A stretch of DNA of 64,000 nucleotides from Candidatus Cloacimonadales bacterium (GTDB lineage Bacteria > Cloacimonadota > Cloacimonadia > G963667145). Made by a program: the position numbers and the translations under genes. The notes beneath the pieces were generated by a model. The model was given only the letters and a program-made list of their open reading frames with translations, was not told the origin of the DNA and searched no databases. The stretch's first letter is position 1. Each line of letters starts with the position of its first letter. The stretch spans positions 158,718 through 222,717 of the forward strand of contig OZ245797.1 of assembly GCA_965228195.1 (NCBI GenBank), given 5' to 3'. Below are positions 1,292-63,040 of the stretch, piece after piece.

Positions 1292-1351
1292 CTGAGCTGA
1301 CCACATAATTGCGGCTAATCAATCAAGAGTTTATTTATGTGGTCAGCTCAG
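1292..1351. repeat. hairpin H1 (type A, extended 17-bp stem)
   Basis: 'ctgagctgaccacataa' / 'ttatgtggtcagctcag'; the loop contains 'gcggctaatca'. Confidence 0.85.
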
Positions 1352-1514
1352 AAAATAAAAATTAAGAATTAAAAATGAAAAATTTCACCGCAACCCCGCA
1401 CTTTTCAGAGCATCGTCCTACTGATGGTTTCCTGCTTCCGCTAGGAATGAGGGCGGGAGGGGAAATATGTTTTTTTCTCCTTGCGGAGATTTGGTGGTTT
1501 GGCTTTCAGCCAGA

Positions 1515-1552
1515 CCCTCTCTTTTCGTTGAGCGCTCAACGAAAAGAGAGGG
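1515..1552. repeat. 38-bp palindrome T1, perfect (similar copies T2 17213-17250, T3 20265-20302, T4 62760-62797; T4 degenerate)
   Basis: 'ccctctcttttcgttgagc|gctcaacgaaaagagaggg'. T2 and T3 each have one central mismatch (gagcgttcaac / gaacgctcaac); T4 reads 'gagcgatcaaag'. Confidence 0.85.
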
Positions 1553-1768
1553 GAGAGAAAAGAAAACCGCTCCGCTTCAACTCGCTAGAGACAGGTCGTG
1601 AGATGTCTTAAGATTACCGTGGCGGGGAGCATCTCCGAGATTTTTTCCTGACTGGCTAATCACTTTGGTCTTGCGTTTTCAACACCTTACGAGAGTGCTA
1701 AGTGTCTCTGCTCAACCGAGCAAGTGAAAACGGGTGACCCCGATGAAGCGGAGAGTGCCACCCCAAAT

Positions 1769-1818
1769 CTGACACCAAAATAGTTGCTAACCATTTTTTG
1801 CTTATATTTTGGTGTCAG
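1769..1818. repeat. hairpin H5 (type C)
   Basis: 'ctgacaccaaaata' / 'tattttggtgtcag', a perfect 14-bp stem; the 22-nt loop contains 'gctaacca'. Confidence 0.85.
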
Positions 1819-1822
1819 ATTC

Positions 1823-14998: not shown

Positions 14999-15736
14999 TT
15001 ACAACTTCTCCAAAACCTCGTCCGAAATCTCGAAATTTGCATAAACTTTTTGGACATCGTCGCTGTCTTCCAGCTTGTCTATCAGGTTCAAGAGTTTCTC
15101 GGCTACATCGTCGGCGTTGACCGTGTTTTTGGGGATTTTGGTCAGCTCAAACCTTGTTACCTCAAACCCTTCCGATTTTAAGGCGTCCACCACCGTGTGT
15201 AGCTCTTTGGAGTCGGTGTAGACCAAAAACTCACCTTGGTCCATCTCGATGTCTTCGGCTCCACAATCCAGTGCCTTGAGCATAAACTCGTCTTCACCCA
15301 GATCGCTTTTGACCACGATCTCACCCTTGGAATCGAAAACCCAAGCCACCGCTCCGTTCTCTGCCAAACTTCCCCCGTGCTTGGAAAAAATGTGGCGAAC
15401 ATCTGCCACGGTCCGATTGCGGTTGTCTGTCAAACATTCGACGATGATTGCCACTCCCGCCTGACCGTAACCCTCATAGGTTATCTCTTCGTAGTTAACG
15501 CCATCGGTCTCGCCGGTGCCACGCTTGATCGCCTTGTCCACATTGGAGGTGGGCATATTGGCGTCTTTGGCCGCTGCCATGGCTGTCCGAAGGCGAGGAT
15601 TGGAGCTCTCGTCTCCTCCCCCCTGCCGGGCTGCCACGGTAATCTCTTTGATCAACTTGGTAAAAAGCTTAGCCCTCTTTTTGTCCGCTGCTCCTTTCTT
15701 GTGCTTGATGGAGCTCCATTTATTGTGTCCTGACAT
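14999..15736 (-). CDS. yebC: YebC/PmpR-family transcriptional regulator
   Basis: 'MSGHNKWSSIKHKKGAADKKRAKLFTKL...NPRLRTAMAAAKDANMP' is the canonical YebC N-terminus; 245 aa. Confidence 0.9.
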   Translation of the reverse strand: MSGHNKWSSIKHKKGAADKKRAKLFTKLIKEITVAARQGGGDESSNPRLRTAMAAAKDANMPTSNVDKAIKRGTGETDGVNYEEITYEGYGQAGVAIIVECLTDNRNRTVADVRHIFSKHGGSLAENGAVAWVFDSKGEIVVKSDLGEDEFMLKALDCGAEDIEMDQGEFLVYTDSKELHTVVDALKSEGFEVTRFELTKIPKNTVNADDVAEKLLNLIDKLEDSDDVQKVYANFEISDEVLEKL

Positions 15737-15926
15737 AATCGGTTTAATTTTCTCCTTAAAATTAGTTCACCCTCAAATCAAAGCAAAAAAGGGAAAACGG
15801 CAAATATCTGTCAAATAGTTTCTTTGGTTGATTTCGCCGAAAGCTTTGTCGCTTCCGCTCCAAAGCTTTGGTTGATTTCCTATAAGTAAAAATGTCACCT
15901 TTTTTTTCTCCTTGCGGAGGGCTAGT

Positions 15927-15976
15927 ATGACCACTAAAATATAGTCGCAAATTTATAGCTTAATTTTAGTGGTCAT
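15927..15976. repeat. hairpin H2 (type B)
   Basis: 'atgaccactaaaat' / 'attttagtggtcat', a perfect 14-bp stem; 22-nt loop 'atagtcgcaaatttatagctta'. Confidence 0.85.
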
Positions 15977-16516
15977 AAATTAAAAGTTAAAAATGAAAAA
16001 TTTCATCCAAACCCTTTCCCTTTAAGTGATTAAATTTTTTCTCCTGCGGAGGCTATTTTTTTTGCGGGGCAGGTAAGCACCCGCTCCTTTCCTTATTTTG
16101 CTAAGTAAATTATTATTGCTTTCTCCTGCGGAGGGCTTACTCTTTTCGGATTGCCGAAAAGAGTAACAGAAAAGACAACTCCGCTTCAAAGCGCCAGCGA
16201 CGGAGCGTGTCACCAGCAGAGTAAAAAAGTGTGGTCGTTCCCGCTTATTACCCGTAGTCTTGTCATTTTCTGCTTTTGGCTTTGCACCTCTACTTAGAAA
16301 GTGATTGGTGTCGCTGGCTTAACAAAGTAACGAAAAGGGGCTAATTTCCCTTTAAGCGGAGGTTGTCCCCACACTCTAAGCAAATAAGCAAGCACCTATC
16401 CACCCAGCTGGGCAGGGCAGGAAGCTCCCTGCCCGCCCCCCTCATTCCTAGCGGAAGCAGGAATCCATCAGTAGGACGATGCTCTGAAAAGTGCGGGGTT
16501 TGAATGGAAAAAAATC

Positions 16517-16801: not shown

Positions 16802-16938
16802 TATGCTTCCTTTGATTTTTTAGCTAAAATGGTATAGCTTTTATTTTGTGTTTACTGTTTTTTGTTCCCTACCCAACCCTTCCTTGGATTCCTGCTTCCG
16901 CTAGGAATGAGGGTGGGAGGGGAAAATGGGTTTCCTAC

Positions 16939-16988
16939 CTGACCACATAAATACGGCTAATCATTTGAGACTTCATTTATGTGGTCAG
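16939..16988. repeat. hairpin H3 (type A)
   Basis: 'ctgaccacataaat' / 'atttatgtggtcag'; loop 'acggctaatcatttgagacttc'. Followed by a duplicated 'gtcag' and then module S. Confidence 0.85.
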
Positions 16989-44159: not shown

Positions 44160-44182
44160 ATTCCTCTTTTTAAAAAAAATAA

Positions 44183-46917: not shown

Positions 46918-46928
46918 AAAAAAAATTG

Positions 46929-48140: not shown

Positions 48141-48730
48141 TTCACTTGACTCCTGTCTTCTAACACCTTATCCAAAATTCCGTAACTTTTACTCTCTTGC
48201 GCCGACATAAAAAAGTCACGGTTGGTGTCTTTCTCTATCTTCTTCAAAGTTTTGCCGGTGTGATGGCTCAAGATCTTGTTCAAATTGTCTCTCACCTTCA
48301 GGATTTGGTTGGTGTGAATCTCGATATCGCTAGCTTGTCCTTGCATTCCACCCAAAGGCTGATGAATCATCACTCTGGCGTTCTTCAACGCAAACCGCTT
48401 ACCCTTGGCTCCACCTGCCAAAAGCACCGCTGCCATCGAACAAGCTTGCCCCAGACAAATAGTGGAAACTTTAGGGGTGATGAACTGCATCGTATCGTAA
48501 ATTGCTAGCCCCGCGGTCACCACACCACCGGGAGAGTTCAAATAGATGTAAATATCTTTGTGTGGATCTTCGCTCTCCAGATGCAGAAGCTGAGCGCAAA
48601 CCAAATTTGCCACATTGTCGTCGATCTGCGAGCCGATGAAGATTATCCTATCTTTAAGCAAGCGAGAAAAGATGTCGTAAGCCCTCTGGTCACGACCACT
48701 CTGCTCTACCACCATTGGCACAAAAGACAT
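48137..48730 (-). CDS. clpP: ATP-dependent Clp protease proteolytic subunit ClpP
   Basis: Catalytic triad context '[11 protein letters not shown]', 'MIHQPLGG', 'RDFFMSA'; 197 aa. Confidence 0.95.
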
Positions 48731-50022
48731 TAGTTATCCTCTTTTTTCTGGGTCGCTTTAGCTTTAGGCTGGCTTTTGCCCGAAGTTGCCTCTGCTGCCG
48801 CCTCAGGACTGATAACGCTCATCTTCTTGACTATCTTGTCCACAATCTTGTTGTCCAAAGCAGGAGCAAAATATTTATCTTCGTCAGCCAAACTGTCTTT
48901 GTATTTATCTTGGTAATCCTCAAGGCTCATCTTCATCCCTTGGGCGTTGAGTAAGGTAAACTTCTCTTTTTCGTTATCGGTCAGCTTCACATCCATACTC
49001 TTGCGGAAAAAATCCAAAACATACATCTCACGCAGTTGAGACTCTGCCATATTCATAAACATCGGCATAACCCCAGAGATCTTCGACTTGTAAGCTTGCA
49101 TATAAGGTTGTGCCATCTGACGAGCATACTCTCTGACCAAATCTTGCGGAACTTCCAGATCGTTGACCTTCGCCAGTGCTGCTACCATCGCTTGTTTCTT
49201 AAGCACCTTGTTGTCCACATCCAACTTAGTTTTGAGATCTTTTTTTATCTCAGCCTTCATCGTCTTCAAATCATCAAATCCAGCATCTTTCGCCAGCTCA
49301 TCGTCAACTTTCGGCAAATTCAATCTTTTCACCGAGGTGATCTTCATCTCCACCTGTTTCATATCCGAGCCATCTTTCTCTTTGCTATAATCCATCTGCG
49401 TGGTCAGCTCATCACCCACTTTCACGCCCTTGAGCGCATCTTCAAACTCCTTGCCATAAGGGGTGCTACCATAGATAAAGTTGCGTTGAAACTCCTTGCC
49501 ACTAACCACAAACTTCATATCGGCATAAATCGTGTCGCCCTTCTTGGGAGCGGTCTTAATCTCCTCCAACTTGCCCATCTTGTAACACAGATTTTGCAGC
49601 TCGGCGTCCACCTCTTTGGCTCCCACCTTCTTCTGCTCAAAAACCATCTCCACACCGTCGTAGTCGATCTTATCGTAAACAGGAGCCACCTGATAAGAGT
49701 ATTTAATCTCCAAATCTTGAGAAGGCTTTTCTTGAATATCCAAAATATCACCAACTCCCACAGGCTTAATCTCTAGCTTCTCTACCACCGACTTATACTC
49801 TTTTGAGGCAAAATCTTCTCTAAACTGAGCGGTTATGCTCTGGCCATAGATCTTCTCCACCATAGTCAAAGGCGCTTTGCCCTTGCGGAAACCTTTGATA
49901 CTCACCATCTTGGCGTATTTGCGCAAAGATTTTTGATACTCTTTGTTTACCAACTCAGCCGCAAAAACGACTGTAGCTTCTCTCTTACATTTACTAATCT
50001 CTTTCAGTTGAATATCCATCAA
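48730..50022 (-). CDS. tig: trigger factor
   Basis: 430-aa ORF with a ribosome-binding N-domain, an FKBP-type PPIase middle domain and a C-terminal arm. Confidence 0.9.
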
Positions 50023-50273
50023 AACTCCTACTCTTTGAGTCTAAAAAATCACAAAAAAAAATCTTTCTTCAGAAAAACAGTTTGAAGAACGACCAATTAC
50101 TTAACATTTCTCGAGCCAAATAAGACTCTACATTACATCTTGCAAACTACAACCAACCAAAAAAAGAGTGCCAAGCTGTCAAACAATTTGTTATCTAGCC
50201 AATTCACTCTTTATCTTTCTTGATTTTCGGGTTGATCGTAATCGGTTATCCATTTTTTCCCTCAAGAAAAAAA

Positions 50274-50359
50274 TGGTGCGAGAGGGGGGACTTGAACCCC
50301 CAAGAGCAGAGCTCGCTGGATTCTAAGTCCAGTGCGTTTACCAATTTCACCACTCTCGC
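50274..50359 (-). tRNA. tRNA-Leu (anticodon TAG)
   Basis: The reverse complement 'gcgagagtggtgaaattggtaaacgcactggaCTTAGAAtccag...' has a long variable arm (class II), T-arm 'ggggttcaagtcccc' and encoded CCA. Confidence 0.85.
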
Positions 50360-50439
50360 TTTTGGAAAAAGCAGTAGCCTCTTTGCAAAAAGAAAAAACC
50401 ACCACTGCGCCCACAATTTAAAAACTGCCTTGGCTGTCA

Positions 50440-51195
50440 AGGCAAAAAAGACAAGATTTCCTGCCCCAAAGGGCTGGAAATCTCTCCGCTTTCAGCGGGG
50501 AATGTTTTTTTCGCCTAGCGGCGAAGAGTTTTTTACTTTTCCCTTTGGGTTCTTGGCTTTCAGCCAAAATGTCACCTTTCTTTTTTTTTGAAAAAAAATA
50601 AATGTGACCGAAAGAAAAAATCAAATCAAAAGACAAAATCCTAACTTGCAAAACTCCTTCGTTGTGGCTGTAGTGTATCGTTTAGATTCTTTCTTAGATA
50701 TACTAAAGTAAGAGAAATAAACTCCTCACACATCCACAACTTCAGTCGTTTAAACAAGTTCACGGATTTAGCCTTGATTGATTACTAGCCCTTCCCGCCT
50801 AGCTGGGTAGGATAGGTGCTTGCTTATTTGCTTAGAGTGTGGGAACAACCTCCGCTTAAAGGGGTCTTCTTATTTTAGTTACATTGATAAGCCAGCGACA
50901 AAAATCGCTTTCTCAGTAAAGATGCAAAACCAGAAGCAGAAAATGACAAGACTACGGGTAATAAACGGGAACAACCACACTTTTTTACTCTGCTGGTGAC
51001 ACGCCCCGTCGCTGGCGCTCTGAAGCGGAGTTGTCTTTTCTGTTACTCTTTTTGGCAATCCGAAAAGAGTAAGCCCTCCGCAGGAGAAAGCAAATATTAC
51101 TGCTTTAATGAGACTAAGACGATGGTGTCTCCGACACCTTATCTTTCTCCCCTAATTCCTAGCGGAAGCAGGAATCCATCAGTAGGACGATGCTG
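50440..51195. repeat. repeat block R5, including direct repeat DR1 (50571-51195), left boundary of the defense island, adjacent to tRNA-Leu
   Basis: 50571-51195 and 61604-62226 differ at about 17 positions over ~625 bp by eye. The block contains Q (reverse orientation) and P, and begins with hairpin-like 'gtcaccttt...aaatgtgac'. Confidence 0.9.
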
Positions 51196-51391
51196 AAAAA
51201 AACCAAACAAAGCAAACAGCTACAAAAAAAAATCTTTCGCTGTTTTTCAGCTTGCGGGTAACGGTTTGAATATGTGGAATACAGGATTTCAAAGCACTTC
51301 ACTATCAAACCGTTGAGAAGTTGAAGCGGGCTATAACCGTTGAATTCACTACTATTTCGCCTATTTTGTATATAAAATGTTGTAACATTTT

Positions 51392-52936
51392 TTATTCTTC
51401 ATCCTTTTTAAAGACTGCCAAATGTTCTAATAATTCTATGTTTCTTTTCGGTTTCTTTATAGTCTCAAATAATTTAATCCCTGTTGGTATCGGTTTAAAG
51501 AATTCAGCCCGATTATCTTTTAAACTTTTAATCAACTTGCTCCTAACTTTTGATGGAAAGCTAACTTTAAATAAGTCCAAAGACTTTACAAAGTACACCA
51601 ACCAAATAATATCATATTGATTGTCCTCTGGATTTTTCAACTTGTCATTTAAAAGATTTTCAATCACTGAACTAATTGTTGAAATCGTCCTGACCTTTTT
51701 CCTATTGTTCAATATTATTTGCTCTATTATTCCTAATATTTGAGGAAATGATTTATTTCTTCTTTCCTTAAGCATAAGCAATAAGCTTATTGTTTTCAAT
51801 AAATCTTTTTCCTTAAAGTCAAATTTAAGGTCAAAATCCTTGGTGTAAAGTTCACTTAAAAACCTATCAACAACACCAGTACCTTCGTATTTTTGGTCTA
51901 CCTTTAGAGTTCCTCTTATTGAACTTTCAAATCTTTTATAACTTACCTTTCTCTTATACCTTAATGAATATTGTTGGTAATCAGCCGTCCATTCCCTAAA
52001 TAATCCTTCTGGCAATTCATCAATTTTCGATTTACCTTCATTTAGCGTCAGGTTGTATAAAGCTAACTGTTTCTGCAATACCTTAATTATTTGATTAGCT
52101 TCTTCTTTTGTCTGACACAAAAAACGATAATCGTCTTTAAATCTTACTCCTAAAAAATCAATCCCTTGAGTATCGATTATTTTAGAGCACTCAGTATCCA
52201 AAGCAACAAGAATTAACTCAGAAATTAAGTCTGAAAGAGCTGGCCCAATAGCGATTCCGTTTGTACACCCATCATTAGAATATTGGAATAGTTTATCCAG
52301 AACTAATCCGACAAAATTATTAAAATCACTCCGATTACCCTTTTTTCTTATCTTCTCCTTAGTGTGAATTGCCCAAGCAATACTATGTGTATAGATTGAA
52401 GAATAGAAATTTTTAATATCTGTTTTAAGTATGTATTTATAGTTATAAGCTTCTGCTACTAAATCATTTTCTGCCATTTCAAGAAACTCATAAATCATTC
52501 TACCAGCTCTCAAATTTCCAAGAAGTCCTTCACTTTTATTTGAAACGGGTATTGGAAAACTATAAGAGTAGATTTTATTCTGTCGCCTAAACAATGATTT
52601 CTGAATTAATTCCCAATCATTTATCAAGTACCATACAATGTCGTGATATATTTTAGGAGCAATAATTCCAAATGTTCTATCAGTCAGTTGTGTTTTTGGA
52701 AATGAAACATTTAATAATTCGGATTTTTCAGGCTCAAATTTAGGCTGGCTACCTGAATTATCTATTTCAAAATATGGATTTGTCAATAGGTCAAATTTAC
52801 CAACTTCAAAACACGGAGGCATAACATATTGCTCAGGAAAATAACCTTCTTCCAATAACCATTTTGCAACAATGTCTTTTGGTACTTTTTTTAGAAGTTT
52901 TTTAGTTTCAATGCTATGTTTTCTTGGTAATGTCAT
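51392..52936 (-). CDS. stand-alone reverse transcriptase of the UG/Abi (defense-associated, DRT/Abi-P2-like) type, 514 aa
   Basis: RT motif 1 'FPIPVSNKSEGLLGNLRAGR', motif 2 'DIKNFYSSIYTHSI', motif B-like 'NGIAIGPALSDLISELIL', motif C 'FLGVRFKDDYRF' (catalytic DD), then a ~170-aa helical C-terminal domain. No maturase or endonuclease domain; A+T-rich codon usage. Confidence 0.8.
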   Translation of the reverse strand: MTLPRKHSIETKKLLKKVPKDIVAKWLLEEGYFPEQYVMPPCFEVGKFDLLTNPYFEIDNSGSQPKFEPEKSELLNVSFPKTQLTDRTFGIIAPKIYHDIVWYLINDWELIQKSLFRRQNKIYSYSFPIPVSNKSEGLLGNLRAGRMIYEFLEMAENDLVAEAYNYKYILKTDIKNFYSSIYTHSIAWAIHTKEKIRKKGNRSDFNNFVGLVLDKLFQYSNDGCTNGIAIGPALSDLISELILVALDTECSKIIDTQGIDFLGVRFKDDYRFLCQTKEEANQIIKVLQKQLALYNLTLNEGKSKIDELPEGLFREWTADYQQYSLRYKRKVSYKRFESSIRGTLKVDQKYEGTGVVDRFLSELYTKDFDLKFDFKEKDLLKTISLLLMLKERRNKSFPQILGIIEQIILNNRKKVRTISTISSVIENLLNDKLKNPEDNQYDIIWLVYFVKSLDLFKVSFPSKVRSKLIKSLKDNRAEFFKPIPTGIKLFETIKKPKRNIELLEHLAVFKKDEE

Positions 52937-53084
52937 TCTCTGTCTTTAAATAACTGGCAACCACTCGCTACCATCATTTTACATATCATCCTTATTTGAC
53001 TTGCTATCTACATAGTTTATATTTTTTCCCATAACTCTTACTCACTCCTACTTGTCGAAAAAATAAGCCCAAACTTCTTTGTCA

Positions 53085-53500
53085 ACCAAAATAGTCAAGG
53101 CTTTGTCGCTTCCAGCGGTGAATGTTTTTTTCTCCTGCGGAGGGCTTACTCTTTTCGGATTGCCGAAAAGAGTAACAGAAAAGACAACTCCGCTTCAAAG
53201 CGCCAGCGACGGGGCGTGTCACCAGCAGAGTAAAAAAGTGTGGTTGTTCCCGCTTATTACCCATAGTCTTATTATTTTCTGTATCTGGCTTTGCATCTCT
53301 ACTTAGAAAGTGATTTTTGTCACTGGCTTATCAATGCAGAGAAAATAAGAAGATCCCGTTAAGCGGAGATTGTCCCCACACTCTAAGCAAATAAGCAAGC
53401 ACCTATCCCGCCCAGATAAGCAGCGCAAGAAGCCCATTTTCCCCTCCCACCCTCATTCCTAGCGGAAGCAGGAATCCATCAGTAGGACGATGCTGAAAAA
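53085..53500. repeat. repeat block R6 inside the island (Q forward ... P forward) between the RT promoter region and the DUF1016 gene
   Basis: 53130-53230 matches Q ('ttctcctgcggagggcttactcttttcggattgccgaaaagagtaacagaaaagacaactccgcttcaaagcgccagcgacggggcgtgtcacc'). 53450-53500 matches P ('cctcattcctagcggaagcaggaatccatcagtaggacgatgctg'). Confidence 0.85.
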
Positions 53501-53602
53501 AACCATTTGACAATCAATGTCTTAACCAAACCCTTTGAAAGATCAATCCAAATTGTTCAAAACAAAAAGCCAATATTTTGAGTTGGTCGAAAGGAGATAG
53601 CT

Positions 53603-54604
53603 GTGAGTAACAAAAAAAATATAGATGATCAACTAATTAGTTCAAATTTTTATTCTGACATAAAAAATATCCTCCAAAATGCTCGCTCTAAAGCCCGCTC
53701 TGCTGTAAATTCGACAATGGTTGAAGCTTATTGGTTTATAGGTAAACGAATAGTAATAGAAGAGCAAAATGGACAAAGCAAAGCAAAATACGGTCTGCAT
53801 TTATTGGAAAATTTATCAACAAAACTAGCCGATGATTTTGGCAGAGGATTTTCTTATGCTAATCTCAGAAATTTCCGTCAGTTTTATCTAACCTATCCAC
53901 AGAAAGAGATTTGCTACACAATGTGTAGCAAATTGACTTGGAGCCACAACAGATTAATAATGCGTGTTGAAGATCCAAAAGCTCGGGATTACTACTTACA
54001 AGAGGCTTCACAAGAAAACTGGAGCGTTCGCCAACTAGAGCGTAATATCAAATCTAACTATTTTGAACGCTTGCTTTCTACGCAAAAAAACGATGCTGTT
54101 TCTAATACTGAGAAAACACTCGACTTTATTAAAGATCCTTATGTTTTAGAGTTTTTGCAACTGCCAGAGAGTAACATAAAAGAATCAGCTTTAGAAGAAG
54201 CTATTGTCAGTGAATTAAAAAGTTTCTTGCTTGAAATGGGAAAGGGATTCTCTTTTGTAGCTAAACAAATGCGTATAAGCACCGAAACTTCTCATTTTTA
54301 TATCGATCTTGTATTTTATAATTATTTGCTAAAATGCTTTGTGATTATAGATCTTAAAACAGGCAAACTCACCCACCAAGACATTGGGCAAATGGATATG
54401 TATGTGCGTATGTTTGACGATTTAAAACGCAATAAAGACGATAATCCTACCATCGGAATTATCTTATGTGATAGCAAAGATAAAACCGTCGTGAAATATT
54501 CTGTGTTAAAAGAGAACGAACAACTTTTTGCTTCAAAATATCAGAAAGTGCTACCAACCGAAGAAGAGCTAATTGCTGAAATTGCAAGAGAAAAACGCAG
54601 ATAG
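53603..54604 (+). CDS. DUF1016/YhcG-like protein with C-terminal PD-(D/E)xK nuclease fold
   Basis: 333-aa ORF. 'FYIDLVFYNYLLKCFVIIDLKTGK' gives the D...(D/E)xK nuclease core seen in YhcG-family proteins; A+T-rich; between the RT and the hsd operon. Confidence 0.75.
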   Translation: MSNKKNIDDQLISSNFYSDIKNILQNARSKARSAVNSTMVEAYWFIGKRIVIEEQNGQSKAKYGLHLLENLSTKLADDFGRGFSYANLRNFRQFYLTYPQKEICYTMCSKLTWSHNRLIMRVEDPKARDYYLQEASQENWSVRQLERNIKSNYFERLLSTQKNDAVSNTEKTLDFIKDPYVLEFLQLPESNIKESALEEAIVSELKSFLLEMGKGFSFVAKQMRISTETSHFYIDLVFYNYLLKCFVIIDLKTGKLTHQDIGQMDMYVRMFDDLKRNKDDNPTIGIILCDSKDKTVVKYSVLKENEQLFASKYQKVLPTEEELIAEIAREKRR

Positions 54605-54715
54605 TAGTGTTTTTTTTCCACCAAGCACATAAATTTGCTCCTAAGAGATATTAAAATTTATTCTATTCAAATTATTTATAAAATTGTAAACAATTTGTGT
54701 GCTGGTAAGAGTCTT

Positions 54716-57700
54716 CTATAATCTGATTTGATTACCAGTTTGACTCTGAATCAATGTTTCAAAAATAAACTCTTTATATCTTCTTTGAAAATCTTTGTCG
54801 TTGTTAAACTTTTTGAACACTTCAGTTTGACTAAACAAATATTGTTGCACCACTTCCTCAAGTTTTTTATCTGCACTAATTTTTGCGTTTTGGCGATCTG
54901 AGTATTTTATCGTATTCATTATTTCTTTATTAGCTTTCATTTCTGCAGGTAATTGCTCTATTAATATTTTTCTTACTTTGTCTTTATCAGACCACTCAAT
55001 ATCACCAAATCGCTGATTAAATACACTTAAAATATTTTCCAGTGTATCTAACTCTGGTTCTTGTTGTCCACCTCTTACATCAACAGGAATTCCACAAATT
55101 TCGCCTGGCTTCTCAACTAATGCAATATCTTTGGTTGTCTCTTTTGAGGGACGATAACTGTCCATATCAATACTTTCCAAAATTCCTTCCGTAAAATCAT
55201 CAGTCTGATCTATATATAACTTAGTAACAAGGTATTTAAGAAACCAGAAAAGCTTTTCCCAAGTTTGATTGTTAAAATCTAGTATTTTAGTAAGATAGCT
55301 GTAAACTCTCAAAAATGATTTTGCTTTTGCCTTGAAATCTATTTGTTGATCTTTGCTAATATCATTTTTAAATATTTTAACAGACCTATCTATTATAGGG
55401 TCAAGTTTTGCACGCTCTTCACCTTCAATATATTTTTTGAAAAAGTCATCAATTTGGTAATCAGAATAAACCTCGAAAGCTTCCATAGAGTCTACTAAAT
55501 CGTTCAGTTTATTTGGATTAGTTTCTTCACTTAATATGGTTGCCGTGTAATAAGGGTCAAAAGCCAACTTAATTTCTTCTGCTTCGTTGAAAAAGTCTAA
55601 GACAAAGGTATCTTTTTTATGTGGTTTTTTAGCACGGTTTAATCGTGAAAGTGTTTGAACGGCTTGAACTCCTGCCAACTTTTTATCTACATACATAGTG
55701 TGCAATAATGGCTCATCAAAACCTGTCTGGTATTTTTCGGCAACTATCAAAAAGCGATATTCCATTTTTTTAAAATTCTTGGGAATATCTGTTTTAAATG
55801 TTTTGAAGTTATTCATGCCAACCTCATTATATTCAACACCCTTGTATAGTTTTGTTCCAGAGAAAGCAACAATAGCTTTGTAGGGCGATTTTATTTCTTT
55901 CAAATAAGTGTCGAAAGCTTGCTTATACTTAATTGCTAATTCAATACTTTTGGTAACAACCATCGCTTTTGCTTTTCCACTTATTAGTTGACGAACATCA
56001 CGATGAAAATGGTCAATCATTATTTTAGACTTTTCGGCAATGGCAAATTCATTACCCTCTACATAAGCTCGAAGTTTTTTCTGTGCCTGTTTGGTGTCAA
56101 ATTCAGGATTATCTTCAACCGCTTTAATTAGCTTATAAAAAGAGTTGTAAGTTGTGTAATTTTTCAATACATCCAGAATAAACCCTTCCTCAATTGCCTG
56201 TTTCATGCTGTAGACATGGAAAGCATAAAATCTATGTTTTATCTCCCCATTTTCATCGGTGTAAGTTTCTTCCGATTTTACACCAAAAGTTTCCAGTGTT
56301 TTATTTTTTGGCGTAGCCGTAAAGGCAAAGTAAGAGCCGTTTTTGATCATTTTACGACTTTCAATCAGGTCGTTTATTTTATCCTCCAAGGTTTTCTCTT
56401 CCTTTTCTTCTTCGCCATGTTTATCTGCTAAAACAGCATTCATTTTCGAAGAAGTCTGTCCACTTTGTCCACTGTGTGCTTCATCAATGATAATTCCGAA
56501 TTGCATAGCTGGCATATCTGCCATTTCATCTAATAAAAACGGGAAAGTCTGAACGGTGCAAACAATTACTTTTTTACGGTTGGCGAGTGCTTCTTTTAGC
56601 TGACTTGTTTTACTTCCACCAACACTGGTAATGTGCTCAACAATGCCACGTTTTGGCGAGAACTGTTTAATATCTTCGCTTAGCTGTTTATCAAGCACAA
56701 TACGGTCTGTAATTACGATAACCGAATCAAATAAATGCGTTTCTCCTGAAGTGTCAAACAAACCATGCAGTTGATGAGCCAACCAAGCTATCGATTTTGA
56801 TTTGCCCGAACCTGCCGAATGTTGAATCAAGTATTTATTGCCAACACCATTACTTTTTGCATCTGCTAAAATTTGCCTGACTGCGGTAAGCTGATGATAA
56901 CGAGGAAAAATCATCATGCGTTTTACTCTTTTAGTTTCCTCGTCGGTTTCTTCAACAACCTGTGCAAATTTGTCGATAATGTTGGCAAGCGACTGTTTGG
57001 TTAAAACCTCTTCCCAAAAGTAATGTGTTTTTAGTCCCGTTGGGTTTACTGGATTTCCAGCCCCAAAATTGCCTGTTGCTCTACCTTCGTTTAAGCCTTT
57101 GTTAAAAGGCAAAAAGAAAGTTTTTTTATGATTCAAATGCGAGCTCATAAAGATCAATTCTGTATCGACTGCAAAATGAACCATGCAACGAGCAAAAGAA
57201 AATATCTTTTCTTTTGGGTCTCGGTCGTTTTGGTATTGGCGAATGCCGTTGTGAACGGTTTGTCCGCTTAACGGATTTTTAAGCTCACATGTAATAATTG
57301 GCAAGCCGTTTAAAAAGATAGTCAAATCTAAGCGGTTGGCATTGTCAGAACTATAAACTAACTCCTGAGTCACTGAAAAAATATTGGCGTTGAATTTATC
57401 AAGGTCTTTGGTATTGTAGCTTGAAGCAGGTTGACGGAAAAACAAATTCACGGTTTTATCGAAGTGCTTTATACCTTTTCGTAACACTTCAATTACGCCT
57501 AGTTTCCTGAGTTTTTCATCCAAACGCACCAAAAAAGAACGCTCGCCCTTGCGCTTAATCATTTGGTAAGTCTCAGGCTGGGTCTTTTTGATAAACCCCC
57601 ACAATTGTTTTGGGTTTATGCAAAACTCTTTGTCGAAATCTTTAGAAACAGTCTCGCAAAACTTGTTTTGCTCCACAAGTTGTTTCACAATGTATTTCTG

Positions 57701-57736
57701 AAACCCCTTTTCTGATGTATCTGTAAATGTCCTCAT
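54716..57736 (-). CDS. hsdR: Type I restriction enzyme R subunit HsdR
   Basis: 1006-aa ORF. N-terminal nuclease domain, SF2 helicase motifs 'QHSAGSGKSKSIAW' (Walker A) and 'IIIDEAHSGQ' (DEAH), and a C-terminal helical domain. Last gene of the operon. Confidence 0.9.
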   Translation of the reverse strand: MRTFTDTSEKGFQKYIVKQLVEQNKFCETVSKDFDKEFCINPKQLWGFIKKTQPETYQMIKRKGERSFLVRLDEKLRKLGVIEVLRKGIKHFDKTVNLFFRQPASSYNTKDLDKFNANIFSVTQELVYSSDNANRLDLTIFLNGLPIITCELKNPLSGQTVHNGIRQYQNDRDPKEKIFSFARCMVHFAVDTELIFMSSHLNHKKTFFLPFNKGLNEGRATGNFGAGNPVNPTGLKTHYFWEEVLTKQSLANIIDKFAQVVEETDEETKRVKRMMIFPRYHQLTAVRQILADAKSNGVGNKYLIQHSAGSGKSKSIAWLAHQLHGLFDTSGETHLFDSVIVITDRIVLDKQLSEDIKQFSPKRGIVEHITSVGGSKTSQLKEALANRKKVIVCTVQTFPFLLDEMADMPAMQFGIIIDEAHSGQSGQTSSKMNAVLADKHGEEEKEEKTLEDKINDLIESRKMIKNGSYFAFTATPKNKTLETFGVKSEETYTDENGEIKHRFYAFHVYSMKQAIEEGFILDVLKNYTTYNSFYKLIKAVEDNPEFDTKQAQKKLRAYVEGNEFAIAEKSKIMIDHFHRDVRQLISGKAKAMVVTKSIELAIKYKQAFDTYLKEIKSPYKAIVAFSGTKLYKGVEYNEVGMNNFKTFKTDIPKNFKKMEYRFLIVAEKYQTGFDEPLLHTMYVDKKLAGVQAVQTLSRLNRAKKPHKKDTFVLDFFNEAEEIKLAFDPYYTATILSEETNPNKLNDLVDSMEAFEVYSDYQIDDFFKKYIEGEERAKLDPIIDRSVKIFKNDISKDQQIDFKAKAKSFLRVYSYLTKILDFNNQTWEKLFWFLKYLVTKLYIDQTDDFTEGILESIDMDSYRPSKETTKDIALVEKPGEICGIPVDVRGGQQEPELDTLENILSVFNQRFGDIEWSDKDKVRKILIEQLPAEMKANKEIMNTIKYSDRQNAKISADKKLEEVVQQYLFSQTEVFKKFNNDKDFQRRYKEFIFETLIQSQTGNQIRL

Positions 57737-57739
57737 AAA

Positions 57740-59128
57740 CTATTCCTTTATTTTTGAACGATATTGGTTTTCTTTTTCGGCGACCATTCCCAAATCAATA
57801 TCTTGACCCAAATTTGAGTTTGCATCATCAGGCACTTTTAACTGCCCTGTTACTATTTGGGTGATTAAACTTTCTTGGTACTCTTTGGCTTTAGCGATTT
57901 CTGTTTGGGCTTTTGTAACAGCTATTTCATACGGAGATAGTTCGCTCTCAATCTTTCGAACAATATTAATTTGTTCCTCTTTAGGAGGTAGTGGAATAAA
58001 CATTTTACTAAAATCTCCCTTGCCAATATTTGGTTGACCTGTCTCTCTTTGACCAAATATAATTTGGTCAAAAATAACAGACGAAGATAATAGCCAAAAA
58101 AGATAGTCTTTATTTAGTTTTTTATTAGAAGGGAAAAAGTTGCCTACACGATAGTTTTGTAATAAAACTTCGTTAATACCCTTTGCACATATAATCTTAC
58201 CAATTGTACCACCTGTCAATGCCATTAAAATATCACCTTCGTTTATGATATCTTCTCTAAATTCAACCTTCCTTTTAGAATCAACAAAAGAGCAATTTGA
58301 TAAATCTAAACTTCCTTCATAGGTTAGTTGGGTGATTTTAACAATTTTAATTCCAATATTCTTAAAGTCATAATCTCTAAATTGGTGACCATGCCTTAAA
58401 TAAATATAATGGTTAAATTTCACAACTTCCCAATGTTCAGGTATATCACCAATCCATTCGTTGTTAGAACTAATAAGTTTTCCTGAACCCTCACCATTGG
58501 TTATAAGTTTATATATGATTGATTTCTTTTCTTCCTCCAACAGCTCAATCAATCGTTCTTTTTTAGCAACAAAATCTTGTATTTGCTTTGTTTTGCGGTC
58601 GAGGTAGGCAACTATGGCATTTTGGGTTTCAAGCGGTGGCACAATACTGTACATACGTTTGAAATCCACGTAACGTAATGGTATTTGTCCATCTGCAATT
58701 CCATAAGCAAAACGTTCCACATAGTTTTTATAAAAACCAGTACGAAACATGTAATAGAAGAAACGAGGATTTAACTCAACTCCTTTCTTTGGTTTCAAAA
58801 CTGTACAAGCTGGACTTACAATTCCTTTGTAAACGCTGTAACCCGATGCACCTTGGCGAAAACGCATGCTGTAAACCAAATCGCCAGGATAAACCAATAA
58901 GTACTTACTTTTATCTAAAGTGGATGAATCCCTTTTCTCCAATTCAGATTGTTTAATTACTCCACGCCCAATGGTTACTGAAAGTAGTTCTTTATCTTCG
59001 TGTCCACGTTCAATCCGTTCCTGAAAAATTGCAATATTTGGTAACAGTTTCCAGCCTTCGGGTAATTGCGAAATGTAATCGTATTCAACAGGCTGATAGT
59101 TTGTGTATGCTTGTAATTTACCCATCAC
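57740..59128 (-). CDS. hsdS: Type I restriction-modification specificity subunit HsdS
   Basis: 462-aa ORF with two target-recognition domains separated by conserved coiled-coil spacers ('LIELLEEEKKSIIYKLITNG', '...LITQIVTGQLKV'). It overlaps hsdM by 4 nt. Confidence 0.85.
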   Translation of the reverse strand: MMGKLQAYTNYQPVEYDYISQLPEGWKLLPNIAIFQERIERGHEDKELLSVTIGRGVIKQSELEKRDSSTLDKSKYLLVYPGDLVYSMRFRQGASGYSVYKGIVSPACTVLKPKKGVELNPRFFYYMFRTGFYKNYVERFAYGIADGQIPLRYVDFKRMYSIVPPLETQNAIVAYLDRKTKQIQDFVAKKERLIELLEEEKKSIIYKLITNGEGSGKLISSNNEWIGDIPEHWEVVKFNHYIYLRHGHQFRDYDFKNIGIKIVKITQLTYEGSLDLSNCSFVDSKRKVEFREDIINEGDILMALTGGTIGKIICAKGINEVLLQNYRVGNFFPSNKKLNKDYLFWLLSSSVIFDQIIFGQRETGQPNIGKGDFSKMFIPLPPKEEQINIVRKIESELSPYEIAVTKAQTEIAKAKEYQESLITQIVTGQLKVPDDANSNLGQDIDLGMVAEKENQYRSKIKE

Positions 59129-61314
59129 TCTTTCACTATTTGGTTTAAAATACCGTCGGTTTCTTGCTCTAGTTGCAAAATTTCTGCGCTAATCTCTTCA
59201 ATGCTGCGTGGCGGAACATAGTTGTAGAAATAACGGGTAAAAGATATCTGGTAACCTTTTACGGTTTTCTTGTGGTCAATCCAAGCGTCATTTACATGAG
59301 CCAAAACCTCACGCTCAAAATAGGTTTGAATATCTTCGTCTAAAGGCACATTTTCGGTGTCGCGCAAATCGCCATCGGCTTCGTAAATTATAGTGCCGTC
59401 TTTTTCTGTTTTCTTGATTACAGGCTCGGCATCTTCGTTTTTCCAAGTAATGGCGTTTATAATTGCTTTTTGTGCCTTATTGTCGAGTTTCAGCTTTTCA
59501 CTCTTTATGGTTTCGGTAAATAGTTTAGAAAACTTGTTAAAATCGTTATGCTGTTCGGTTCCAATGCTGCTCATTAGTTTTGTCGCATTTTTAAGCAGTT
59601 CTTTTTGTGCTTTCCAAAAATCCTCACTAAACAAATTTTTCTTTTGTGCCGCTTTTAGTTTTATCTCGTGTCGGGCAAGATGGTTTTCAATCTCAGGTTT
59701 TAAATCTTTCAGTTTGGTATAAACATCATCGCCAAACTTCTGGTAAACCCAAACCATTTCAGCGGCAATACTTTTTTCAAAACGCAAACCCTTAAGGGCT
59801 TCCTGGGTAAATTGTGCCGATAAACGCAAAGGGCGTTCAACCGTAATTTTATTGTAGCCAAAATAGTCGTTCGGGAATATTTTGGAAATGTCCGATTCTT
59901 CAAAGTCCATATAAAGCTTTGTAATTTGGTCGATGTGTTTGGCTGTCATCTCACAGTTCTTATCTCCCAAGTTTTTGCGAAGCTTTACATACAATTCAAG
60001 TGCGTTAATCAATTGCACCTTCCCTTTTCGTTTGTCTGGTTTTCGGTTGTTCACAATCCAAACATAGGTTGGTATTCCTGTATTATAAAAGATATTTTTA
60101 GGTAAAGCAATGATGCAGTCTAACCAATCGTTTTCGATAATATATTTGCGGATTTCGCTTTCTCCGCCACCAGCGTCGCCTGTAAACAAAGCCGAACCAT
60201 TATGAACAGTTGCAATTCGGCTTCCCAGTTCGGTATTGTGTTTCATTTTGCTGAGCATATTCATCAGGAACAATAATTGCCCGTCAGAAATAGTTGGCAA
60301 ACCAACTTGAAAACGAGGATCTTTAATATTCTGGGCATTTTCGCCCGAACCTTTTTTGCCTCGGTTGGCAACAATGGCGTTTTCATCAAGCTTCCAAGTT
60401 TTGCCATAAGGTGGATTTGAGAGCATAAAATCAAAATTAAGGCTTGGAAAACCATCTTTTGAAAGGGTAGAGCCAAAAGCGATATTTTCAGGTTTATCGC
60501 CTTTTATCAGCATATCAGAGGTGCAAATTGCAAAAGTTTCAGGATTTACCTCTTGTCCATACAACAAAAATGATGCTTCGTTTTCTGTAAGTTCCAAAGC
60601 AAACTGTTCTGCCTCGGTTAACATTCCGCCACTACCACAGGCTGGATCATAGATTAAATAACTTCCTTTTTTGATTTTATTTTTAACAGGCAAGAACAAA
60701 ATGTGAGTCATCAGTTTAATGATTTCTCGTGGCGTAAAGTGTTCTCCAGCTTCCTCGTTATTTTCTTCGTTAAACTTTCTGATTAGTTCCTCGAAAACAT
60801 AACCCATTCCTAAATTGGTCAACGGTGGCATTTTATCACCTTTTCCATTTACCGCTTCATTAGGACTCAAGTTAATCTCTCTGGAGGCAAACTTTTCAAT
60901 TAGCAAATAGGTGATCTCGTTTTCTTTCATAGTCTCAAGCTGGTTTCGCAGTTTGAATTTGCTAATTATTTCTTGCACATTGGGGCTGTAACCATCCAAA
61001 TAAACCTCAAGGTTGCTGTCTATATTATCAGAATCGTTTAACAGGCTCTCAAAAGTAAACTTGGAAGTGTTCCAAAATGGATAACCAGTTTGTGATTTTA
61101 AAGCAGACAAATCGTCTATTTGATTTTGCTTCATAAACTCTACTGCTTCAAGCACCTTTGCCTTTGTCGGAACAAGAAGAGCGTCTAACCGTCTCAAAAC
61201 AGTAAAAGGCAAAGTTATATCTCGATATTTGCCTCTAACAAAAACATCTCTGAGCACATCGTCGGCAATACTCCAGATGAAACTTACTATTTGATTGTGA
61301 ACTTTATTGTTCAT
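59125..61314 (-). CDS. hsdM: Type I restriction-modification N6-adenine DNA methyltransferase HsdM (long form, 729 aa)
   Basis: HsdM N-terminal domain, SAM-binding 'DPACGSGGML', catalytic 'LSNPPYG', and a ~250-aa helical C-terminal extension. Confidence 0.9.
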   Translation of the reverse strand: MNNKVHNQIVSFIWSIADDVLRDVFVRGKYRDITLPFTVLRRLDALLVPTKAKVLEAVEFMKQNQIDDLSALKSQTGYPFWNTSKFTFESLLNDSDNIDSNLEVYLDGYSPNVQEIISKFKLRNQLETMKENEITYLLIEKFASREINLSPNEAVNGKGDKMPPLTNLGMGYVFEELIRKFNEENNEEAGEHFTPREIIKLMTHILFLPVKNKIKKGSYLIYDPACGSGGMLTEAEQFALELTENEASFLLYGQEVNPETFAICTSDMLIKGDKPENIAFGSTLSKDGFPSLNFDFMLSNPPYGKTWKLDENAIVANRGKKGSGENAQNIKDPRFQVGLPTISDGQLLFLMNMLSKMKHNTELGSRIATVHNGSALFTGDAGGGESEIRKYIIENDWLDCIIALPKNIFYNTGIPTYVWIVNNRKPDKRKGKVQLINALELYVKLRKNLGDKNCEMTAKHIDQITKLYMDFEESDISKIFPNDYFGYNKITVERPLRLSAQFTQEALKGLRFEKSIAAEMVWVYQKFGDDVYTKLKDLKPEIENHLARHEIKLKAAQKKNLFSEDFWKAQKELLKNATKLMSSIGTEQHNDFNKFSKLFTETIKSEKLKLDNKAQKAIINAITWKNEDAEPVIKKTEKDGTIIYEADGDLRDTENVPLDEDIQTYFEREVLAHVNDAWIDHKKTVKGYQISFTRYFYNYVPPRSIEEISAEILQLEQETDGILNQIVKE

Positions 61315-62285
61315 TTATTTACCTCGTCAATTTAAAAAAGTCATAACAATAAACAAATTACAGCTTTGCAAAAAAAAATCTTGCTGCAAATTTGAGTTTT
61401 AGCAAAAATGTGACTTTTTGGCAAGCTAAAAACATCAACTTGTGTGTCGGAGCTTGCAAATTTGCTGTTTGTGTGGAGTGCAATCACAACTATTTACTAA
61501 CATCATTGTCTATAATTTTCATTATAGTATCCAAGAAAACTTATCCAAATTTTCCCGTCAACCAAAATAGTCAAGGCTTTGTCGCTTCCGGCGGGTTACT
61601 TATGTCACCTTTCTTTTTTTTTGAAAAAAATAAATGTGACCGAAAGAAAAAATCAAATCAAAAGACAAAATCCTAACTTGCAAAACTCGTTCGTTGTGGC
61701 TGTAGTGCATCATTTAGATTCTTTCGGAGCATAGCTAAAGACAGAGAAATAAACTCCTCACACATCCACAACTTCAGTCGTTTAAGCAAGTTCGACGGAT
61801 TTAGTCTTGATTGATTACTAGCCCGTCCCGCCTAGCTGGGTAGGATAGGTGCTTGCTTATTTGCTTAGAGTGTGGGAACAACCTCCGCTTAAAGGGGTCT
61901 TCTTATTTTAGTTACATTGATAAGCCAGCGACAAAAATCGCTTTCTCAGTAAAGATGCAAAACCAAAAGCAGAAAATGACAAGACTACGGGTAATAAACG
62001 GGAACAACCACACTTTTTTACTCTGCTGGTGACACGCCCCGTCGCTGGCGCTCTGAAGCGGAGTTGTCTTTTCTGTTACTCTTTTTGGCAATCCGAAAAG
62101 AGTAAGCCCTCCGCAGGAGAAAGCAAATATTACTGCTTTAATGAGACTAAGACGATGGTGTCTCCGACACCTTATCTTTCTCCCCTAATTCCTAGCGAAA
62201 GCAGGAATCCATCAGTAAGACGATGCCCAAAAAAGTGCGGGGTTGCGGTGGATTTTTTCATTTTTCACTCTTAATTTTTTCTTTT

Positions 62286-62335
62286 ATGACCACTAAAATG
62301 AAGTTATAAATTTGAGGCTATATTTTAGTGGTCAT
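62286..62335. repeat. hairpin H9 (type B)
   Basis: 'atgaccactaaaat' / 'attttagtggtcat'; loop 'gaagttataaatttgaggctat'. Followed by module S. Confidence 0.85.
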
Positions 62336-62990
62336 ATTTGGGGTGGCACTCTCCGCTTCATCGGGGTCACTTTTTTTCCTATCTTAGTAGAGCAGAGACA
62401 CTTGGCACTCTCTTAAGGTGTTGAAAACGAAAGACCAAAGTGATTAGCCAGTCAGGAACAAATCTCGGAGATGCTCCCCGCCACGGTAATCTTTAAGACA
62501 TCTCACGCCCTGTCTCTAGCGAATTGAAGCGAAAGCGACAAAGCTGTGGGGACAATCTCCGCTTAAAGGGAAATTAGCCCCTTTTCGTTACTTTGTTAAG
62601 CCAGTGACAAAAACCACTTTCTAAGTAGAAGTGTAAAAGTTACGTTTAGAGAATGACAAGTCTACGGATAATAAGCGGGAACAACCACACTTTTTTACTC
62701 TGCTGGTGACACGCCCCGTCTCTAGCGAATTGAAGCGGAGCGCGTTTTCTTTTCTCTCCCCTCTCTTTTCGTTGAGCGATCAAAGAAAAGAGAGGGTCTT
62801 GCTGAAAGCAATAAGAGTAAGCCCTCCGCAGGAGAAAGCAATAATAATTTACTTAGCAAAATAAGGAAAGGAGCGGGTGCTTACCTGCCTGCAGAAAAAA
62901 ATGCAAGGTTAGAAAGAGAAAAACATAATCACTCAGTGGGAAAAAAATTGAATGAAATTTTTTCATTTTTCATTCCCAATCTTTTATTTT

Positions 62991-63040
62991 ATTACCACTA
63001 AAATGAAGCTATAAATTCGAGACTATATTTTAGTGGTCAT
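62991..63040. repeat. hairpin H10 (type B, one stem mismatch)
   Basis: 'attaccactaaaat' / 'attttagtggtcat'; loop 'gaagctataaattcgagactat'. Confidence 0.8.

Follow-up and report, generated by a model that had tools for sequence, protein, structure and literature searches.

Repetitive extragenic palindromes (REPs) and REPINs are short intergenic repeats that form hairpins in single-stranded DNA (ssDNA), are abundant in a lineage-specific manner, cluster into mosaics, and are mobilized by IS200/IS605-like Y1 transposases (RAYTs). Stems in the REP catalogue measure 5-13 bp and loops mostly 2-5 nt (PMC3733652), and REPIN excision is asymmetric, with ~6 bp of the right end remaining (PMC3116915). 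Another set of palindromes, the CGTC-tagged dRS3/NTS repeats, are the cognate repeats of the Ssn site-specific ssDNA nucleases, whose genes are arranged in an NTS-ssnA-NTS architecture (PMC11893778); CCTC variants of the CGTC tag and a CCA tail have also been described (PMC3733652), and Ssn-related motifs are defined by the SRM pattern HGTCWY..YYVSBRH..WNVSBRG..RNCYNB or by an ATTCCC-N8-GGGAAT core. Here we describe ten 52-nt hairpins, H1 to H10, in a 64-kb stretch of the genome of a Candidatus Cloacimonadales bacterium (contig OZ245797.1, positions 158,718 to 222,717; hereafter the window). They share with REPs and REPINs the general properties named above, together with conserved inverted arms, a less conserved spacer of fixed length, and compensatory changes, and they appear to be a kind of REP relative that has not been described before. 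A literature search on repeats in Cloacimonadota returned nothing specific.

The ten hairpins compare with ~0.02-0.03 chance matches per stem pattern when an inverted stem-pattern search is run on shuffled sequence. Reading each copy with its flanks, together with a generic inverted-repeat scan, defined the unit as a 15-bp stem enclosing a 22-nt loop. An initial annotation of the window had proposed the ten positions, three stem classes, and a constant 22-nt loop, all of which were borne out; the loop is exactly 22 nt in the window copies and in 10 further copies from relatives. The same annotation had given the unit as 50 nt with perfect stems of 13-14 bp. The 14-bp stem stands, but all ten copies have a covarying 15th pair (T-A, C-G, or G-C), which brings the unit to 52 nt, and pairing is complete (15 of 15) in only six, with one mismatch each in H1, H5, H8, and H10. 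The class A stem, CTGACCACATAAAT, is found in H1, H4, H7, and H8; class B, ATGACCACTAAAAT, in H3, H5, H9, and H10; and class C, CTGACACCAAAATA, in H2 and H6. With DNA parameters, the copies fold as ssDNA with energies between -11 and -15 kcal/mol, far more stably than shuffles (z -5.7 to -8.2), and the loop itself contains only weak, inconsistent helices of 2-5 bp.

An alignment of 20 copies from five related Cloacimonadota genomes required no gaps across its 52 columns, and the hairpin ends are (T/C)CTGAC...GTCAG(A/G). A covariance model built from these copies found no eleventh hairpin within the window. Over the 15-pair helix, 97.9% of the stem cells are standard pairs, and eight of the 15 pairs show compensatory changes on both sides. 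The covariation score of 0.469 was not reached in any of 500 shuffles (0.137), and slid pairing partners scored at most 0.053. Between classes, the stems are 60-75% identical and the loops 48-58%, whereas within classes substitutions from the consensus affect 18 of 570 stem positions (3.2%) and 48 of 418 loop positions (11.5%). By this within-class difference, the stems are constrained beyond neutral decay. Six stem mismatches were found; they are of mixed types and only one is G.T, which fits DNA and does not suggest that a single transcribed RNA strand is under selection.

The loops share an 11-nt core across all classes, which reads CAAATGATTAG in classes A and C and CAAATTTATAG in class B; three loop columns are invariant and four nearly so. 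Under the model, the forward strand of the loop outscores the reverse by 25-35 bits at nearly every copy (12 bits at H9 and 18 bits at H3), and by this gap the loop carries real sequence information. Thus, when stem covariation is set against loop conservation, as the initial annotation had suggested, the stem proves to be maintained by compensatory change and the loop core to be common to all classes. The proposed picture of a conserved loop with co-varying stems holds between classes; within classes it is the stems that are better kept. Exact sharing of loop segments is also narrower than had been thought: GCTAATCA, supposedly carried by all copies, is exact only in H1, H4, H7, and H6, with one to three differences elsewhere, and ATTTGAGACT, supposedly common to classes A and B, is exact in H4 and H7 of class A and H5 of class B, but not in the remaining copies.

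All ten window hairpins are intergenic and belong to repeat mosaics. Seven intergenic mosaic stretches occupy ~8.8 kb of the 64 kb; five carry hairpins (1235-1822, 15737-17658, 19906-20960, 38337-39705, and 61315-63150), and two further stretches, around a reverse-transcriptase gene, do not. The hairpin is the outermost repeat of its mosaic in eight of ten cases (H1/H2, H3/H5, H7/H8, H6, and H10), and three mosaics have one at both outer ends (H1/H2, H3/H5, and H7/H8). The placement of the hairpins at module junctions, as noted at the outset, applies to the window mosaics, as does their abutment on gene stops: H2 lies 4 nt from moeA and H8 7 nt from cysK/M, and H6 supplies the TGA of hemW.

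The individual copies differ in their settings. H1 (1296-1347, + strand) has one T.T mismatch and flanks, TCTGA/TCAGA, that lengthen its stem by 5 bp; it lies 63 nt from the start of a Nif3-like gene, and the other outer end of the same mosaic has H2 (1768-1819, +), which follows the moeA stop and continues on its inner side into ATTTGGGGTGGCACT and then a Y element, one of the ~183-nt repeats described below. H3 (15926-15977, -), upstream of yebC and at the outer end of the second hairpin-bearing mosaic, has an AT-rich module on its inner side. That mosaic also contains H4 (16938-16989, +), identical to H7 and to copies in two loci from relatives (L002 and L005), which is followed by an extra GTCAG, ATTTGGGGTGGCACT, and a Y element and lies 30 nt from an NTS-like palindrome upstream of a GIY-YIG gene. 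H5 (17532-17583, +), 77 nt past the stop of a gene for a 748-amino acid secreted protein, has a class-A-type last base that creates an A.G mismatch. H6 (20914-20965, -) overlaps hemW by its stem edge, TCA (20961-20963), which is the stop codon of that gene. The outer ends of mosaic 38337-39705 are H7 (38644-38695, +), flanked by CTGAC...GTCAt and ~98 nt from tRNA-Met, and H8 (39648-39699, +), which has one G.T pair. Finally, H9 (62285-62336, +) has an NTS-like palindrome and an AT-rich module on one side and ATTTGGGGTGGCACT with a Y element on the other, and H10 (62990-63041, +), with one mismatch, forms an outer end of mosaic 61315-63150, 111 nt from tRNA-Arg.

Two short sequences accompany the hairpins, and neither occurs in intergenic DNA of the window away from them. 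The AT-rich module, GGTGRATTTTTTCATTTTTCATTCTYAATTTTTWWTTTT (35-40 nt), adjoins eight of the ten, always on the side toward the mosaic interior; it is found beside H5 at 17492-17531 (+), at 20875-20913, 39609-39647, 62245-62284, and 62950-62989, and in reverse at 1348-1392, 15978-16010, and 38696-38740. The motif ATTTGGGGTGG (16994-17004, +; 17583-17593; 62336-62346; reverse 1758-1768) adjoins four hairpins that span all three classes. The composite hairpin-ATTTGGGGTGGCACT-Y carries class A in H4, class B in H9, and class C in H2, and the composite of AT-rich module and hairpin carries class A (H1, H7, H8), B (H3, H5, H9, H10), or C (H6), and the loop, seen from the AT-rich flank, has one orientation in five copies and the opposite in three. 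Because the same flanks hold class A, B, or C hairpins in either loop orientation, the hairpins behave as exchangeable units.

Comparison with relatives shows gain or loss of the hairpins together with their mosaics. In L002 and L005, the class A hairpin agrees with H4 and H7 at every base, the loop among them (100% identity). L005 is syntenic with the window at 43320-50359, and the DNA flanking its hairpin copy is 74-79% identical; where the window has a 186-bp spacer without repeats (46743-46928), L005 has a mosaic of ~650 bp that holds one class C and one class A hairpin. Three relatives have lpoB 92-132 nt past hemW, and neither a hairpin nor a mosaic module occurs in 63 kb of their DNA; in the window, synteny past hemW stops exactly at the edge of H6, and H6, a mosaic, and different genes follow instead. 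The AT-rich module was not found beside the hairpins of relatives; given this absence and the 100% identity of one hairpin, the hairpin is the sole part conserved between genomes. Three related closed genomes have one or two perfect class A or B copies each, as compared to six in the window, which covers 64 kb of a 1.56-Mb genome; REP/REPIN systems reach tens to hundreds of copies genome-wide.

The family appears confined to one small-genome clade, as far as the collections show. A stem-pattern scan of one genome per species gave five loci, on three closed Candidatus Cloacimonadota chromosomes of ~1.58 Mb, and a scan of a viral collection gave no hairpin. The closest named relatives of the HemW encoded in the window also belong to Cloacimonadota. 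Three matches in a metagenome collection were judged unrelated; they consist of an A-run, a GC hairpin, and a T-run, resemble bidirectional terminators, and have no other similarity to the Cloacimonadota DNA at hand. In these contigs (L006 6704-6757, L007 2612-2665, and L008 1827-1880), CTGACCACTAAAAAA-22-nt GC hairpin-TTTTTTAGTGGTCAG and similar arrangements have an outer stem nearly equal to the class B stem and an inner part that is also 22 nt, and they are probably chance matches to a degenerate pattern. To the left of the window we found a fold-back contig with no new hairpins, and the protein to its right has no record. Several low-coverage linear contigs from the source sample (L009-L012 and L021; ENA ERZ25074352) likewise contain inverted duplications of window regions, such as cysK...mosaic...cysK and nif3-moeA...moeA-nif3, with at least one fold point inside moeA and not at a hairpin; these fold-back contigs are probably long-read assembly artefacts.

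Several copies are nested in other palindromes. In four independent contexts, against ~0.3 expected, the flanks continue the pairing of the stem without interruption for 3 bp or more: H1 (TCTGA/TCAGA), H7 (TGA/TCA, within CTGAC/.../GTCAt, slashes marking stem edges), H6, and the copies in OY762940. In L002 and L005, the class C hairpin sits between X/Y-type ends, CCCGCTTCA and TGAAGCGGG, with 9-bp arms, and every known copy in OY762940 lies within ATTCCC-hairpin-GGGAAC, where it replaces the centre of a REP associated with a RAYT (REP-associated tyrosine transposase); the unfilled site, ATTCCCAAGCTGGAGCTTGGGAAC, is common nearby. The short boundary duplications reported in the initial annotation are present, as CTGAC/CTGACC...GGTCAG/GTCAt at H7, GGTCAG/GTCAG at H4, and CTGAG/CTGACC...GGTCAG/CTCAG at H1. 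Between the hairpin and the constant ATTTGGGGTGG, H4 retains its extra GTCAG and H5 a single class-A-type G.

These duplications had been taken to mean that one copy inserts into the stem edge of another. This reading is only partly right: a complete older copy that received an insertion should still show ~45 nt of itself to one side of the new one, and no such remnant was seen. The pattern is better described as a hairpin that occupies the dyad of a short palindrome (CTGAC^GTCAG and CTGAG^CTCAG in the window; ATTCCC^GGGAAC and CCCGCTTCA..TGAAGCGGG in relatives), and at H5 and H4 it looks as if an earlier copy was replaced, with 1-5 nt of its 3' end remaining. The 3' leftovers at H4 and H5 recall the asymmetric excision of REPINs (PMC3116915). 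The placement of several copies at palindrome centres (in the REP shell, the X/Y terminal-repeat shell, and CTGAC^GTCAG) also resembles that of IS1397, ISKpn1, and other elements that target REP loops; those are full, transposase-encoding insertion sequences, whereas the element here is itself a 52-nt hairpin and its insertion is inferred.

Despite the likeness to REPs and REPINs, the hairpin lacks the features that define the described families. Neither GTAG nor CTAC occurs at or beside the ends of the 20 aligned copies, the hairpin arms are not themselves small palindromes, and the 15-bp perfect stem and 22-nt loop with a conserved core fall outside the tabulated REP ranges (PMC3733652). As with dRS3/NTS repeats and the mosaics of Neisseria, hairpin repeats here bound longer units in intergenic mosaics near surface-protein genes; however, the TGACCAC hairpin belongs to a different sequence family, which lacks both the ATTCC/GGAAT stem and a CGTC or CCTC tag. 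[quoted passage not shown] Motif and model searches found nothing hairpin-like at the insertion sequences of relatives (IS256 type in L002 and L013; HTH/rve type in L018). Thus, the hairpin is REP/REPIN-like but is set apart from the GTAG/RAYT, CGTC/SRM, and MITE families alike.

Nor is it an intrinsic (rho-independent) terminator: the stems are AT-rich, five or six of the 15 pairs being G-C, the loop measures 22 nt, T-rich DNA is found ahead of the hairpin and not behind it, no downstream T-run is present on either strand, and a terminator scan of 15700-21000, which covers H3 to H6, listed none of these four. In Rfam 15, the whole window gives only four tRNAs at gathering scores, and no match overlaps a hairpin even at E<=1; a weak match to RT-2 (19981-20108), which scored 21.5 bits where the threshold is 40, was taken as chance. 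The initial suggestion that the hairpin is a structure read by a protein, and not a plain terminator, stands in its second half; no enzyme of the kinds put forward (transposase, resolvase, or RAYT-like) was identified for the hairpin, as described below.

The only nuclease gene inside a window mosaic encodes a 94-amino acid, single-domain, Ssn-like GIY-YIG protein (16517-16801, -; Pfam PF01541, E 6e-16). It is flanked by inverted CCTCATTCCTAGCGGAAGCAGGAATCCA palindromes (ATTCCT-N9-AGGAAT) 53 nt downstream (16444-16464) and 87 nt upstream (16888-16908), and H3 and H4 bracket it further out. Judged by sequence, this layout is the NTS-ssnA-NTS architecture of the Ssn family, here in Cloacimonadota, with ATTCC..GGAAT palindromes on both sides of the gene in the same mosaics as the hairpins (PMC11893778, PMC3733652). 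Further CCTCATTCCTAGCGGAAGCAGGAATCCA palindromes, each the core of a ~60-nt module, lie at 1431-1451, 17397-17417, 38775-38795, 51155-51175, 53455-53475, and 62188-62208. Both the CCTC tag variant and the CCA tail occur in these NTS-like palindromes. The strict SRM pattern has no match in the window, and with the tag relaxed it has one, inside a gene; the NTS-like palindromes miss the pattern because their compensated stem has T/A where C/G is required. In a relative, L013 contains two copies of a GIY-YIG homologue, 73% identical, with ATTCCTGCGCAGGCAGGAAT 107-109 nt away. We rejected this gene as the enzyme of the hairpin: its conserved flanks are the other palindrome, similarity between the window and L013 flanks is limited to that palindrome, and the hairpin does not directly flank it. 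Between the two GIY-YIG copies of L013 (9161-9852), a small hairpin module, GGCTTTGTCGCTTCCGCTCCAAAGC, forms a tandem array with a 211-bp period; window copies of this module lie near 15838, 17273, 19998, and 38884.

The second candidate is the RAYT of relatives. An open reading frame (ORF) adjoining the hairpins in L004 (1252-1776, -) matches Pfam Y1_Tnp and has homologues named 'REP-associated tyrosine transposase'; other RAYT genes lie in L019 (6001-6534) and L020 (6001-6534). The intact L019 gene and the 66%-identical L020 gene are flanked by GTATGCATTCCCAAGCTSSAGCTTGGGAACGAG in inverted orientation, and the covariance model found no hairpin in L019 or L020. Thus, GTATGCATTCCCAAGCTSSAGCTTGGGAACGAG is the RAYT's own REP, which in the latter case accompanies the gene in a 29%-GC genome. 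In L004, the hairpins lie near the RAYT gene, nested inside its REP, and the gene itself is truncated at the catalytic-tyrosine region by that REP. Because the hairpin is at the REP centre and three of the four copies in OY762940 are within 3 kb of the RAYT gene, hitch-hiking on the RAYT is plausible in that genome. As the enzyme of the hairpin, RAYT was rejected, since it occurs only in relatives and has its own REP (in L004, L019, and L020 the flanking repeat is GTATGCATTCCCAAGCTSSAGCTTGGGAACGAG, not the hairpin). In both L004 and L019, an N-terminal Type ISP restriction-modification ORF is found on one side of the RAYT/REP cluster and, on the other, a separate C-terminal Type_ISP_C fragment. 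A search for a protein family with the hairpins at its gene ends, as the initial annotation had suggested, thus turned up only these two genes and neither qualifies. The 748-amino acid ORF was also set aside, as it is secreted, fast-evolving, and without a Pfam or NCBIfam domain match. This gene (17659-19905, -) has mosaics on both sides, as does its 43%-identical L013 counterpart with repeat modules, and in this it resembles the surface-protein genes bracketed by repeat mosaics in Neisseria.

We consider it somewhat probable that the hairpin is a REP/REPIN-like palindromic module, specific to its lineage, that is swapped as a whole, kept as a hairpin, and probably recognized as folded ssDNA. 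The fold with its compensated subfamilies, fixed geometry, and loop core is seen in the data, and so are unit-wise exchange, gain and loss, and nesting. A trans-acting enzyme would recognize the folded hairpin by its stem, loop core, and fixed geometry, and the module, by way of an ssDNA intermediate, would insert or take the place of a previous copy at sites where the DNA opens into single strands for a time. It may prefer AT-rich spacers and the tips that form when other palindromes extrude, which are the candidate sites; replacement would sometimes leave 1-5 nt of the prior copy's 3' end, giving a staggered boundary. In one relative the hairpin would probably hitch-hike inside a REP owned by a RAYT, and copies right after stop codons may secondarily serve as protective hairpins at mRNA 3' ends. 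A more specific proposal, which we think rather unlikely, is that these hairpins represent a third REP-like class, neither GTAG- nor CGTC-tagged, in which an ssDNA-hairpin-specific enzyme would read the 11-nt loop core and insert the module at palindrome tips, among them those of the repeats cognate to RAYT and Ssn enzymes, to build hairpin-in-hairpin mosaics.

A number of observations weigh against the exchanged-module account. The sample is small, and several of the 20 copies are not independent; compensatory changes could also arise by arm-to-arm templated repair, not selection. No target-site duplications were found, and the hairpin flanks are either palindromic or unrelated; the TA..TA at class B, considered as such a duplication, was rejected because it is equally a stem extension and fails for classes A and C. 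Gain and loss are seen as whole-mosaic differences, and a precise empty/filled pair for a single hairpin was not. No enzyme gene flanked by hairpins was found, and the GIY-YIG and RAYT genes have different cognate palindromes; judged from the RAYT homologue hit list, the contig of the source genome has no close RAYT homologue, and no agent of the expansion in the window was found. All ten hairpins lie inside blocks that are themselves repeated at 75-97% identity (e.g., 1289-1453 and 38637-38800; 17440-17581 and 62897-63039; 15903-16373 and 62545-63064), so their copy number is in part segmental duplication, as for H1 and H7. The forward loop strand is opposite to the dominant gene direction in eight of ten window copies (+ strand) and 14 of 19 overall, which fits an ssDNA process linked to replication but is a weak trend and not significant.

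Among the alternatives, it is unlikely, though not far-fetched, that the hairpins are host-selected RNA-level elements that protect mRNA 3' ends, or insulate or terminate at the boundary between gene and mosaic, and spread only passively. H2, H6, H8, and H5 lie 4, 0, 7, and 77 nt past the stops of moeA, hemW, cysK/M, and the 748-amino acid gene, and from this position would be transcribed at the ends of minus-strand mRNAs; eight of ten copies are at mosaic edges toward genes or tRNAs, stems are strongly kept at each locus, and REPs stabilize upstream mRNA (background cited in PMC3733652). However, half of the copies are upstream of genes or tRNAs, not downstream, and the AT-rich stems, missing T-runs, negative terminator scan (four of ten copies), lack of an Rfam match, and single G.T wobble all weigh against it. 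Of the four post-stop copies, three have the loop in one orientation with respect to the mRNA and H6 has it in the opposite one, so an RNA reading of the conserved loop core is unlikely. We find it improbable that the hairpins are passengers, with no mobility or function of their own, in larger composites that spread by recombination or segmental duplication, their stems being kept by intrastrand arm-to-arm repair. The repeated blocks and the absence of target-site duplications agree with this, as do the recurring composites (NTS-like palindrome, AT-rich module, and hairpin; X element, linker, AT-rich module, and hairpin; hairpin and Y element) and the fact that in relatives the hairpin also travels within other repeats. 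But one composite holds different classes in both loop orientations, which needs replacement of the hairpin alone; the hairpin, in one case 100% identical, is all that is conserved across genomes; and arm-to-arm repair leaves the loop core and the invariant loop length unexplained.

Quite improbable, and argued by analogy with the dRS3/NTS-flanked mosaics of Neisseria, is the idea that the hairpins are recombination or processing sites, where a nuclease or recombinase would break and rejoin DNA, that build and bound the mosaics and are possibly tied to the uptake or restriction of single-stranded transforming DNA. Hairpins do mark module junctions and, in three mosaics, both outer ends, synteny breaks exactly at the edge of H6, the junction leftovers are staggered (1 nt at H5 and 5 nt at H4), and an Ssn-like ssDNA nuclease gene and NTS-like palindromes are part of the same mosaics. 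Counted against it, no recombinase gene is nearby, the orientation of the hairpins at junctions is not uniform, and competence is not known from the phylum Cloacimonadota. In its favor, the secreted-protein gene in the window is fast-evolving and flanked by mosaics, as in Neisseria (PMC11893778); against it, the Ssn enzymes characterized to date bind the NTS-type palindrome itself (PMC11893778), with which the hairpin shares no sequence.

If the exchanged-module account is right, then in a small anaerobe genome (~1.56 Mb) three or more kinds of layered palindromic repeat take up ~14% of this 64-kb window, and the hairpin family fits neither REP super-family catalogued so far. A fixed 22-nt loop and core on a maintained stem would be a ready substrate for finding a structure-specific ssDNA-binding or -cutting enzyme, a search whose practical interest follows from the Ssn nucleases, and nesting in the cognate repeats of another family would be a concrete case of how bacterial intergenic mosaics (BIME- or NIME-like) assemble. 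If instead the hairpins are passive passengers, the family is an ordinary lineage-specific repeat.

The remaining mosaic modules include several smaller hairpins and two MITE-like elements of ~183 nt with ends CTCCGCTTCA...TGAAGCGGAG. Y elements lie at 17009-17194, 1570-1753, and 20320-20504, and X elements at 16179-16361, 20606-20786, 39098-39279, 50850-51030, 53188-53368, and 61883-62063, with an X/Y hybrid copy at 62557-62740. No parent insertion sequence of either was identified, and both were rejected as structured RNAs, as the terminal repeats alone pair (z about -2). Small CTCC-NNN-GGAG palindromes (e.g., 16123-16133) resemble minimal X/Y versions. All 22 of the AAGCGGAG octamers in the window lie inside mosaics. 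Mosaics also bracket a defence island (50274-61314) that adjoins tRNA-Leu; they include a 635-bp repeat whose copies at 50569-51201 and 61602-62234 are 97% identical. The island encodes a class UG14 reverse transcriptase (51392-52936), which scores 709 bits with the RT_UG14 model of PADLOC, together with a nuclease of the YhcG/PDC-S02 kind (53603-54604) and a restriction-modification system of type I (54716-61314).

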